33,485 nucleotides of DNA from a virus (lineage: Duplodnaviria > Caudoviricetes). The position numbers and the translations under genes were made by a program. The stretch is taken from positions 1-33,485 of the IMG/VR virus record IMGVR_UViG_3300037483_001022; one strand, written 5' to 3'. The notes below the pieces were generated by a model. That model searched no databases, was not told the origin of the DNA, and saw only the letters and a program-made list of their open reading frames with translations. Shown one piece after another: positions 13,072 to 15,694 of the stretch; within the stretch, counting starts at the first letter, position 1; every line of letters begins with the position of its first letter.

Positions 13072-13115
13072 TTTTATCAGCACCCAGTTTTCAGATGAAC
13101 GGAAAGGAACGGAAG

Positions 13116-13850
13116 ATGAGCTTGAAGTTGAATCAGGTCATCGCCCTGGTCGGCGGTCGAAAGACGGCGATCCAGAAGCTGTTGACCACGGTGCATCACG
13201 GGTGGAAGGCGGACCGCGTGACGGGTATGACCCGGACGTACACGCCGAAGAATGAGGACGGAGAGCGGTTCCCCTCCGAGAACAAGGTCCTGCAACTGCG
13301 GGTTCTGGATGAACTCGCCAGGGTCAGGGCGGAGTTGGCGGACTTTTGGGACCTCGTGGCGCTCCAGGAATATTCCAACACGGCGGCTCGGTCGGACATC
13401 GTCGTGGAGGGCACGACATTGGCGGTTGATGTTCCGGTCAGTGCGTTGTTGTTTCTGGAGAAGCAGCTTACCGATCTGGCCACGCTGATCGGGACCCTCC
13501 CGACTCTGCCCATCGACAAGGCATGGAAAGAGGACGCGGGCAATCGGTGTTACGTCAGTGAGGCCGAGCAGACGACCAAGACCCGCAAGGAGCAGAAGCC
13601 GCTGGTCTTGTACCCTGCGACACCGGAGCATCCGGCGCAGACGCAGCTCATCACGGTCGATGAGACGATCGGCACCTGGAACACGGTCTACACGTCCGGC
13701 GCCATCCCCGCTTCGGGGCAGTTTGAAGCGTTGCAGCGTGTCGAGAAGCTGCGGAACGCGGTGAAGATCGCGCGGGAGCAGGCGAACAGTATTGAAGCCG
13801 GGGGCAACAATGTGGGCGCCGCACTGCTCGGTTACGTCTTTCAAAAGTAA
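13116..13850 (+). CDS. Conserved hypothetical protein (recalled as DUF7873-like), immediately upstream of a structured RNA
   Basis: KLNQVIA, RTYTPKNEDGE, DVPVSALLFLEKQLTDL, ATPEHPAQ, SGAIP, AVKIAREQAN motifs; family name from memory, unverified. Confidence 0.8.
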   Translation: MSLKLNQVIALVGGRKTAIQKLLTTVHHGWKADRVTGMTRTYTPKNEDGERFPSENKVLQLRVLDELARVRAELADFWDLVALQEYSNTAARSDIVVEGTTLAVDVPVSALLFLEKQLTDLATLIGTLPTLPIDKAWKEDAGNRCYVSEAEQTTKTRKEQKPLVLYPATPEHPAQTQLITVDETIGTWNTVYTSGAIPASGQFEALQRVEKLRNAVKIAREQANSIEAGGNNVGAALLGYVFQK

Positions 13851-13859
13851 ATAGAGCGC

Positions 13860-14237
13860 AGAGTAAGGCTTAGATTGAGTCTTAGATCCTGCCTTGTAGG
13901 TTCGAATCCTACCCCGCCTATTTTCTCTGGGGGCGGGTGGCGCAACGGCAGACGCGGCGAAAGCCGGCGGGGATCAGTACCAGACTATCGCTCTAAGCTA
14001 AACGCGTGAGGCCCATCTGGTCGAGGTCCGTCTTTTGGATCGATTGATGCGAGTTCGATTCTCGCCCCCAGCTTTTGAAAAAACTCCGCCGGGGTAGCTT
14101 AACGGTAGAGCGGATCGATGTCAGCTTGATCGACGGATTAAACGAACAGTACGGGTGGGGTCGGCAAGTCCCCTCACAAACGCACTTGTAATGCGCATAG
14201 CTCCGGTCGGTCGGATAGTGCCGGCCGGGGCCTTTAT
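13860..14237 (+). ncRNA. Structured RNA with two circularly permuted tRNA-like modules and a free anticodon-like hairpin
   Basis: Twice T-arm, then loop-closed acceptor stem, then D-arm (13896-13956; 14049-14112), each closed by long stems; terminal hairpin 14200-14231. Confidence 0.8.
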
Positions 14238-14311
14238 TGCGGCGTAGAGCAGCAGGTCAGCTCGCTGGGCCCATAACCCGGAGGTCGCTGGTTCGAATCC
14301 GGCCGCCGCTA
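14238..14311 (+). tRNA. tRNA-Met(CAT), initiator type
   Basis: Full cloverleaf; 1:72 mismatch, GGG/CCC in anticodon stem, loop CCCATAA, GGTTCGAATCC T-arm; no encoded CCA. Confidence 0.92.
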
Positions 14312-14539
14312 CTGTTTCGAAGCCTGGTGCCGACAGGCGGTAAAATTTCGAGCCCCGTGGGGAACAGGCAGCCTACGGGGTGGTGGCAGGGGATCAGACT
14401 CGGTTGAAACGTCGTGAGCCATAACCCCTGCAGCGGTTCGCCGGCCCCGGCTGGCAGAACTCGCGGGCGTGACGGCCGCCAGAGGCGGCGTTCTTTGACA
14501 ACTTCATAGGGTTCGTCGCTCGGCGATGGGCAGCGGATG

Positions 14540-14548
14540 TGGTATACT
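14540..14548 (+). promoter_or_regulatory. Extended -10 element for the integrase
   Basis: TGGTATACT about 40 nt upstream of the ATG. Confidence 0.35.
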
Positions 14549-14588
14549 CGCTGCGGGTGTGATGCCTGCGGCCGATAGGAGGTGTCAC

Positions 14589-15623
14589 ATGCCTGAGCTA
14601 TTGCTGAGTGAGCTGTTTGACAAGTTTTGGAGTTCTTCCGTCACGCAGGGCACCACGCGGGCCAAGTGCCGGTCCGCCTGGCGGGTGTTGGTGAAGCTGC
14701 TGGGCTCTTCGTTCCCGGCGGCCGACGTTGGCGCCCCGCAGATCGACGCCTATCAGCGTCATCTTCGCGATGAGGCCGCCAGCCGGTACGGCCGGGGATT
14801 CAGTGAGCACAGCGTCTTTTCCTATACCGCGGCGGTCGGTCAGGTCTTTTCCTGGTCCCTCGACGCCGGACTGGTTTCGGCCAACCCGGTGAGCCGGTGT
14901 CATCGGATCAAGGCGACGAAACGGAAGGTCCACGTCTACACCCGCGATGAGGTCGGCTCGATGCTGGACTGCGTGCGGGGCAATCCGGATCGGCAGATCG
15001 CGGCCCTGATGTGGCCGGACGCCGCCGGGGTGTTGCGGTGGACGGGGTTCTTTCTGGCTGCGTTGACTGGTCCGAGGGTCGGGGAGGTCTGGAATCTCCG
15101 ATGGGACGATATCGACCTGGAGTCCGGCGTCCTGCAGATCCGGTCCCGTGCGGACAAGCTCGGGGAGTATTGGCGGTGGACGGCCAAGGGTAAGTCGGAC
15201 CGCAGCGTGCCGATGAGCGATGATCTCTGGGCGGTCCTGTGCCGATTGCGGTCGGTTGCGCCGTGGCGGTATCCGTTTCTCAAGGAGCGGACCTGCAAGG
15301 CCAGGCAGACACAGGTGGGCCGATTGTCCGAGAGCCAGCGAAAGTATCCGTACAACAACTTCCACCGGGAGCTCCGCCGGATCGTGGCGGCCGCGAACGG
15401 CCATCGTTCGGCGGCCGGGTTGGAGCGCATCTCGGACGGGACATTTCACACGTTGCGGAAGAACGCGGCCACGCAGTTGGCCGAGCAGGGCGTGCCGAGC
15501 CACTACTGCCAAGCGGTGCTCGGACACGCCACTGATCGGCTTACCAAAGAGGTCTACACCTATGTAGACCAGCGTAAATGCCTGGAGGCGTCCCGCCAGG
15601 CGTTCAACGCAGCGCCCTGGTGA
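14589..15623 (+). CDS. int: Tyrosine recombinase/integrase
   Basis: AGGAGGT RBS; TGPRVGE (R), AKGK (K), FHTLRK (HxxR), LGH, VYTY (Y). Confidence 0.95.
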   Translation: MPELLLSELFDKFWSSSVTQGTTRAKCRSAWRVLVKLLGSSFPAADVGAPQIDAYQRHLRDEAASRYGRGFSEHSVFSYTAAVGQVFSWSLDAGLVSANPVSRCHRIKATKRKVHVYTRDEVGSMLDCVRGNPDRQIAALMWPDAAGVLRWTGFFLAALTGPRVGEVWNLRWDDIDLESGVLQIRSRADKLGEYWRWTAKGKSDRSVPMSDDLWAVLCRLRSVAPWRYPFLKERTCKARQTQVGRLSESQRKYPYNNFHRELRRIVAAANGHRSAAGLERISDGTFHTLRKNAATQLAEQGVPSHYCQAVLGHATDRLTKEVYTYVDQRKCLEASRQAFNAAPW

Positions 15624-15652: not shown

Positions 15653-15694
15653 TGGGCCCGCAAGGATTCGAACCTTGGACCAAGGGATTATGAG
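15653..15694 (-). other. attP core: 3' half of a CAT-anticodon tRNA (Ile2/Met-like)
   Basis: Minus strand CTCATAATCCCTTGGTCCAAGGTTCGAATCCTTGCGGGCCCA; begins at the anticodon loop, no D-arm upstream; 30 nt from the integrase stop. Confidence 0.85.

Follow-up and report, generated by a model that had tools for sequence, protein, structure and literature searches.

A bare tRNA-Thr(UGU)-type anticodon stem-loop in a predicted self-clamped tRNA-mimic RNA beside a viral DUF7873 gene, interpreted as an optional and exchangeable anticodon display

Introduction

YrlA RNAs (RF02553; PMC4201824) carry a permuted module in which a T arm is followed by a closed acceptor and a D arm; a GUCGA-type motif opens the supporting stem on its 5′ side (in our RNA, the stem of head 2), and tRNA genes lie nearby. 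All of this is shared by the RNA reported here. In Mycobacterium smegmatis, RNase P cleaves such an RNA, to which CCA is then added, and its 7-bp acceptor has the same length as the one at our locus (PMC4201824). Unlike YrlA, the present RNA measures ~385 nt and has two heads, six-base repeats, a predicted 3′ clamp hairpin and a slot for the display of an anticodon; and while YrlA is associated with Ro60, the constant neighbor here is a DUF7873 gene.

A second point of comparison is provided by the replacement tRNAs of phages, since the anticodons under attack in those systems are shared with the RNAs described below. According to the respective reports, tRNA-Thr(UGU) is the target of P2-OLD (PMC12445682), the AriB nuclease of PARIS targets tRNA-Thr(UGU), Lys(UUU) and Asn(GUU) (10.1101/2025.02.04.636281), and a type I-A retron targets tRNA-Ser (PMC12475279). 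The phage counter-measure that these reports describe consists of whole, charged and cut-resistant replacement tRNAs and not of decoys (PMC12445682; 10.1101/2025.02.04.636281; PMC12475279). In contrast, our locus offers a bare arm with a canonical loop, which cannot decode as a charged tRNA.

The T-box antiterminator uses the pairing UGGN:NCCA, and RNase P makes a GGU:RCCA contact. Common to these and to the pairing predicted here is that GG-N pairs with N73-C74-C75 and that N covaries with the discriminator. The present pairing differs in that the loop of a terminal hairpin provides it in cis, that it leaves position 76 unpaired and that it has no leader or catalytic RNA context; a search with the Rfam T-box model over positions 13700–14700 gave no match at E ≤ 10. 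Lastly, tmRNA likewise has a protein partner and is a larger RNA whose tRNA-like domain is devoid of an anticodon arm (PMC4201824). Unlike tmRNA, the RNA reported here has no alanine identity and no evident tag frame, its acceptor is closed by a loop and apparently clamped, and its protein partner is a putative one; the Rfam tmRNA match covers the T arm only.

Results

The window, i.e., the whole stretch of 33,485 nucleotides that was analyzed, is a linear virus record (IMGVR_UViG_3300037483_001022; 36% complete) with phage tail, integrase, methylase and HNH genes. The DUF7873 gene, which is the constant partner upstream of the RNA, lies at 13116–13850 on the + strand (the strand of all features below unless indicated) and encodes 244 amino acids from the second ATG, the longest ORF beginning at 13095; the assignment is based on Pfam PF25283 (E 4e-79). 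Its stop codon is followed by ~385 non-coding bases, an initiator-like tRNA-Met(CAU) at 14238–14312, which was detected by both ARAGORN and Rfam and starts 6 nt past the terminal hairpin of the RNA, and an integrase gene (14526–15623). The stretch at 14313–14500 after the tRNA is non-coding and contains several hairpins, with a fold z of −0.58 that is no better than shuffles. Just past the integrase gene, positions 15653–15694 on the − strand match the 3′ half of a CAU tRNA from anticodon loop to CCA, which is likely an attachment-site core. PADLOC yielded no match for nine proteins of the window.

The AlphaFold model of the DUF7873 protein (pLDDT 92) consists of long helices and a long beta hairpin, and it has no clear structural match: Foldseek returned nothing at E ≤ 0.001, and the best VIA look-alike of residues 2–229, 3kdq_A (Z 9.3, rmsd 8.9, 148 aligned), is an uncharacterized Corynebacterium protein whose score falls within the range of helical look-alikes and is not significant. 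The latter is known as DIP1984, a name for which only unrelated papers were found. Within the mainly open-access literature covered, no paper named DUF7873, and neither anticodon decoys of this kind nor a permuted-tRNA phage RNA were described.

Among the cultured phages fetched, six of eight have tRNA genes within 1.5 kb of the DUF7873 gene. Phages of Gordonia, Arthrobacter, Rhodococcus, Rhizobium, Vibrio and Pseudanabaena (L263–L268 and L270) contain the gene together with an unannotated RNA, mostly amid tRNA genes; a strict anticodon arm was absent from the 45 nt upstream of the terminal hairpin in all members of this group that were scored. A blastn search of cultured phages with the window RNA gave no match, and none of the sequencing runs was listed as holding it.

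The RNA as a whole spans 13851–14235, its ends being inferred, and its layout is kept in related loci. The 5′ strand of a first helix (13852–13858) pairs with 13989–13995 and is followed at 13860–13887 by six-base repeats, as evidenced by invariant alignment columns spaced six bases apart (alignment A4). Head 1 (13896–13965) comprises a T arm, an acceptor with an 11-nt closing loop, and a D arm that we take to resemble that of tRNA-Leu; the position of its anticodon arm is occupied in the window by a GAAA-capped hairpin. A73, which a preliminary description of this DNA had placed in this module, was found at 13920, and 66 of 76 parsed head-1 units have it. Head 2 (14049–14111) is composed of a T arm (14049–14065), an acceptor (14066–14072 with 14088–14094) that is closed by a 15-nt loop, U73 at 14073 and a D arm (14095–14111). 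The acceptor includes the pairs G1-C72, C2-G71, G4-C69 and G5-C68 and a C.A mismatch at 3-70; no CCA is encoded, because positions 74–76 are UUU. The helix linking head 2 to the rest of the RNA fills the position of the anticodon stem, hence head 2 is without an anticodon loop. The features that had been read in this module, namely G1-C72, C2-G71, U73 and the missing loop, are thus all present. A 7-nt-loop hairpin can be drawn at 14113–14131, but we rejected it as an anticodon arm within head 2, as relatives use those bases for the connecting helix.

Our own parser recognized two permuted heads in 77 of 134 representative loci, and across the family the acceptor loops accept inserts of 4 to 100 nt. 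Variants of the layout were also seen. L163 and L006 are one-headed, with a short hairpin in place of head 1 and the remainder kept, and in L170 the anticodon-arm position of head 1 is filled by a genuine CAU anticodon loop, besides a CAU arm in the slot described below. In general appearance, head 1 is like a tRNA with a long variable arm that has been opened there.

The RNA ends in a terminator-like terminal hairpin (14200–14231) with a GG-N-UA loop. Its N and base 73 of head 2 share 1.0 bit of mutual information, the next best position reaching 0.25. The N:73 combinations, as listed for 106 RNAs, were A:U 35, C:G 34, G:U 26, U:A 6, U:G 1 and other 4, so that the two bases can pair in 102 of the 106. 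The two loop G residues are complementary to positions 74 (104/106) and 75 (99/106); position 76 pairs in 32/106 and is thus considered unpaired. Base 73 of head 1 does not follow N (12/76). We likewise asked whether the terminal loop might pair with the D arm or with further motifs and rejected this, since covariation did not exceed 0.25 bit. These data predict that the terminal hairpin clamps bases 73–75 of head 2, in the window by pairing of 14073–14075 with GGA at 14213–14215. Since U73 is explained by this pairing, the discriminator appears to serve in pairing and not as an identity element. The clamp would also place the anticodon arm in a tether between the body of the RNA and the clamp.

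That arm is a bare stem-loop at 14181–14195, with its loop at 14185–14191 and the anticodon UGU at 14187–14189. The preliminary description had put this hairpin just past the closing stem of head 2; it does lie downstream, but ~40 nt away, behind an additional hairpin at 14157–14173, and 4 nt separate it from the terminal hairpin. Its loop agrees with the 7-nt Y32-U33-NNN-A37 loop of a regular arm, whereas the stem has four pairs only instead of five, 27-43 being A.C (−3.1 kcal/mol); across the family, 26 of 31 bare arms have stems of at least 5 bp. It is the only YUNNNAA hairpin with four Watson-Crick pairs on either strand of the window. The loop had been described as that of tRNA-Thr(UGU), which proved to be real: the entire 15-mer is the anticodon arm of a tRNA-Thr(UGU) in 112 of the 120 viral matches listed (~810 estimated in the collection). 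The same stem with a UGA loop is the arm of a tRNA-Ser gene in 58 of 120 viral matches listed, and the stem is therefore not Thr-specific. The 15-mer occurred in none of 301 genomes of the phylum Planctomycetota, which may not be that of the host, and a degenerate search pattern of arm plus hairpin gave one unrelated match.

In an unconstrained fold, the 3′ strand of the hairpin pairs with 13856–13860 instead (P ~1.0), and with the helix 13852–13858/13989–13995 enforced the hairpin forms with P ~0.5. The alternative pairing, 13856–13860 with 14192–14196, overlaps the anticodon hairpin. An equivalent pairing between 5′ end and tail, comprising 5–7 pairs, was present in seven of 13 loci tested in the clade of the window (the window, L168, L002, L165, L003, L005 and L007), and L005 and L007 show compensating changes in it; a conformational switch is one possible interpretation of such a second partner. 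As a separate observation, working tRNAs past the RNA have altered anticodon loops, with C33 in the window tRNA and A32 and G38 in that of L168 (1002–1074), while the loop of the bare arm is canonical. This would fit evasion of a nuclease by the working tRNA.

To place the arm in the context of the family, 262 loci were collected by protein similarity (best 80 per search), of which 261 have a stop codon. A terminal GG-N-UA hairpin was found in 186 of these; the remaining 75 lack a detectable one, being short or divergent, and were dropped. After removal of L169, a false hairpin call, the 185 loci were clustered at 75% into 134 representatives, nine of which have a whole tRNA-like unit directly before the terminal hairpin, and the other 125 were scored for bare arms. 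In 20 of 125, the 45 nt before the terminal hairpin contained a YUNNNAA stem-loop, compared with 0.5 (maximum 3) in 300 dinucleotide shuffles. Other hairpins with 7-nt loops were at chance level in the same slot (36 vs. 38 expected), and flanking control stretches scored with a looser pattern gave one and four of 108. A second set of 141 loci contributed 60 new ones; 46 of these have the terminal hairpin, 39 are independent and six of the latter have a whole unit, and arms were present in the slot of six of the 33 that remained vs. 0.15 expected. When the sets were combined, the slot could be bounded by a conserved TTAAACG-type motif in 134 of 173 representatives. Arms were then found in the slot of 25 of 125 (0.67 expected) vs. 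three of 125 (4.4 expected) in the body, which is six times longer.

Altogether, 29 of 158 representatives have 31 bare arms. Ten of these show UGA and two UGU, and A36 or U36 is found in 29 of 31 (29 of 33 when the pattern is relaxed). The conservation called for in the preliminary description is therefore observed, in that homologs keep the 7-nt YUNNNAA pattern while the anticodon changes, and its second suggestion, a sacrificial anticodon loop for anticodon nucleases or modification enzymes, withstands this check. Two loci have a pair of arms in the slot (L014, UGA and UGU; L279, GAA and GUU). Our patterns for D- or T-arm remnants found none beside the 31 bare arms, and the 111 ORFs of 31 arm-bearing loci revealed no recurrent neighboring nuclease or repair gene. 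Either an arm or a whole unit is present in 22 of 67 viral and two of 27 genome representatives (p 0.01); when bare arms only are counted, the difference, 14 of 67 vs. one of 27, is not significant (p 0.06). This character was gained or lost at least 16 times on the protein tree.

Whole tRNA-like units occupy the slot in 15 of 173 representatives, and 26 of 173 have a tRNA located 3–31 nt downstream of the terminal hairpin. A full acceptor was found in three of 15 slot units vs. 41 of 45 tRNAs downstream of the hairpin, and NCCA in one of 15 vs. eight of 45. By our own pattern, nine of the 15 slot units keep a canonical stem-loop and the others have damaged loops. We considered whether short variable arms prove the slot units to be non-functional and rejected this because ordinary tRNAs at these loci share them. 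The slot unit of L246 has a UCA anticodon, and its variable arm takes the form of an anticodon stem-loop of the Ser(UGA) type.

In the protein tree (FastTree), the window falls within a group of 14 representatives with a support of 99 (16 loci including cluster members); outside this clade, arms are scattered. In an unguided alignment, 14 of the 16 loci have a 7-nt-loop hairpin in matching columns, one of them shifted by two columns, while L164 and L166 are without it. The anticodons are UGA in seven, UGU in two, and UGC, CAU, UAA, UAU and AUA in one each; 11 loci conform to YUNNNAA, and the loops of L003, L006 and L167 deviate. In the stem, 94.7% of cells pair, and 16 double changes are spread over all five pairs. 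None of 500 shuffles paired as highly, although related sequences can exceed shuffles, and slid controls reached at most 43%. Anticodons differ even between close pairs, namely L165 (UAU) and L004 (UGA), and L163 (UGA) and L006 (UGU); in the latter pair, L006 kept its loop size despite a 2-nt deletion relative to L163. A chance hairpin was ruled out by the excess over shuffles in two sets, the restriction to the slot and the covariation of the stem.

The preliminary description proposed that the RNA may present all parts of one tRNA-Thr; on this reading, head 2 and the UGU hairpin would jointly form a substrate of ThrRS. What speaks for this is that the window combines a true Thr(UGU) arm with all four acceptor pairs listed as bacterial Thr determinants, G1-C72, C2-G71, G4-C69 and G5-C68, in a published table, where U73 is not among them (PMC9976931). 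However, all four pairs are found in 13 of 106 head-2 units irrespective of the arm; of the other 12, eleven are without an anticodon arm and the twelfth displays GCU. UGU is displayed in the slot by the window, L014, L006, L066 and L400, and only the window among these five has C2-G71, contrary to the expectation that acceptor identity would be conserved together with UGU. C2-G71 occurred in three of the 20 RNAs with an arm vs. 31 of the 86 that have none, and one Thr-acceptor coincidence among five UGU carriers is expected about half the time. The arm with G35-U36 is not continuous with the D and T arms but lies 70 nt past the D arm, outside the head, and ARAGORN called no tRNA at head 2 and the hairpin. 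UGA is the commonest anticodon. Acceptor and anticodon do not covary but change independently, and a Thr-specific assembly was hence rejected.

At the gathering level, Rfam recognizes only the tRNA in the window. Relaxed searches with YrlA matched 14025–14142 (29.3 bits, E 5e-4) and 13890–13963 (19.3 bits), the gathering score being 69; these two matches correspond to the two modules of the preliminary description. The Ro60 motif GNCGAAN0-1G is absent near the 5′ end, and a variant of it that differs by one base precedes head 2 in the window. The strict motif was seen in eight of 106 RNAs, and the relaxed form RTCRAV in 66 of 106 before head 2 and five of 76 before head 1. A YrlA RNA would be expected within 4 kb of a TROVE (Ro60) gene on the same strand; no such gene was found in the 33.5-kb record, which is 36% complete. 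L168, the closest relative among the matches listed (69% protein identity), has tRNA-like and Y-RNA-like elements past its tRNA, followed by a Ro60 gene (1080–2971; TROVE E 3e-44, vWA). Ro60 adjoins the RNA in L168 only, and the Ro60 protein of L168 matched no other locus among 403. TROVE was present in 30 of 50 DUF7873 genomes vs. four of 61 random genomes of the phylum Planctomycetota and 32 of 61 of the Streptomyces order, a comparison that genome size confounds; the independence of the RNA from Ro60 should not be overstated. The heads are YrlA-like, but the RNA falls short of YrlA in score, size, strict Ro motif and Ro60 neighbor.

Discussion

As judged from sequence, the comparison of related loci establishes the layout of the RNA, its covariation, the specificity of the slot and the exchange of anticodons, and it supports the interpretation of the hairpin as an anticodon display. 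In our best reading, the hairpin would be an optional, phage-enriched and exchangeable display of an anticodon, carried by the tether of a tRNA-mimic RNA that clamps itself. About four-fifths of the family members are without an arm; therefore, the arm is not the core job of the RNA.

What such a display might do is a further question, and we assign a probability of roughly 0.4 to the hairpin being a bait that would draw host anticodon nucleases away from working tRNAs during infection. The bait is favored because the feature is optional, phage-leaning and anticodon-variable and displays tRNAs reported to be cut by such nucleases. Expression, protein binding, the function of the clamp and the target of the arm are what we infer in the following scheme. 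The RNA would be co-transcribed with the DUF7873 gene and bound by its protein, and its 3′ end would be set by the terminator-like hairpin or by an RNase P cut at the next tRNA. The clamp would mask the N73-Y74-Y75 end, so that head 2 would be neither matured nor charged, and the resulting stable particle would serve as the carrier of an anticodon arm, the anticodon of which could be swapped to suit the nucleases of each host. In favor of the bait, cleavage of isolated stem-loops has been described for Cas13b6 (PMC13692257). One objection is that a cleavable bait is useful against a catalytic enzyme only when it is abundant or slowly released. Other published details suit the window less well: P2-OLD requires a CNG motif in the stem (PMC12445682), which the window stem does not have, and the window context U36AAUG|C41 is that of Thr(CGU), a weak target of AriB (10.1101/2025.02.04.636281). 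Also against the bait, the window hairpin is marginal and competes with the pairing of the 5′ end, and the prevalence of A36 or U36 also fits A37-modifying enzymes.

The arm could also be a tripwire, a bolder reading that we regard as unlikely. Once host tRNA cutting begins, a cut in the arm would sever the tether, the 3-bp clamp, which should not hold in trans, would leave head 2, and the freed N73-C74-C75 would switch on the DUF7873 particle. Such a device would account for the presence of arms only between body and clamp (25/125 vs. 3/125) even though the acceptor loops tolerate inserts, and the alternative pairing between 5′ end and tail in seven of 13 clade loci is as expected of a switch. 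On the other hand, processing of the acceptor loops would equally explain the arm position, most members have no arm and would need another trigger, and the particle has no known output.

It is improbable, in our view, that the arm binds or sequesters anticodon readers that do not destroy it, such as MiaA and TsaD acting at A37, anticodon domains of synthetases, T-box leaders or the decoding site. tRNAs with A36 or U36 are the classes with i6A or t6A at position 37. The 29 of 31 bare arms with these bases (29 of 33 relaxed), together with the arms being exact copies of real tRNA arms, would agree with such readers; but our search pattern itself demands A37, UGA repeats in one clade inflate the count, which falls to 13 of 17 for distinct anticodons under the relaxed pattern, and the benefit to the phage is not evident.

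An equally improbable account is that of a neutral relic, in which tRNA genes of the cluster were caught in an insertion-tolerant linker and decayed, with the anticodon arm disappearing last. The locus lies within tRNA clusters, the distribution is patchy, and whole but partly broken units are found in the slot; with the damaged loops in some of them (L096, L053, L308 and L328), a relic origin still has room. Decay alone is difficult to reconcile with bare arms having no D- or T-arm remnants (0/31), with tandem arms, with the covariation of stems and with the loop size kept in L006 despite its deletion.

That head 2 and the UGU hairpin are a dismembered tRNA-Thr is most improbable, given C2-G71 in one of five UGU carriers, a head 2 with its base 73 apparently clamped, a C3.A70 mismatch and no encoded CCA.

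Returning to the display, we tentatively propose a phage RNA-protein particle that would sense or absorb an attack on host tRNAs, with exchangeable arms as bait or tripwire and with cleavage releasing the self-clamp from a hidden tRNA end. Cutting of tRNA is a common bacterial defense, and the phage answers known from the reports cited are resistant replacement tRNAs. The DUF7873-linked RNA is a variant among the Y-RNA-like tRNA mimics. If our reading is true, a bare arm that is kept in shape, swapped and sometimes doubled would be a different phage answer, serving as bait or sensor, and the catalog of displayed anticodons, with Ser(UGA) first, would map the tRNAs that uncultured hosts cut in defense. 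Such a bait or sensor would be directly testable in laboratory E. coli with the P2-OLD, PARIS and retron systems, and for the DUF7873 RNA this is a first functional lead.
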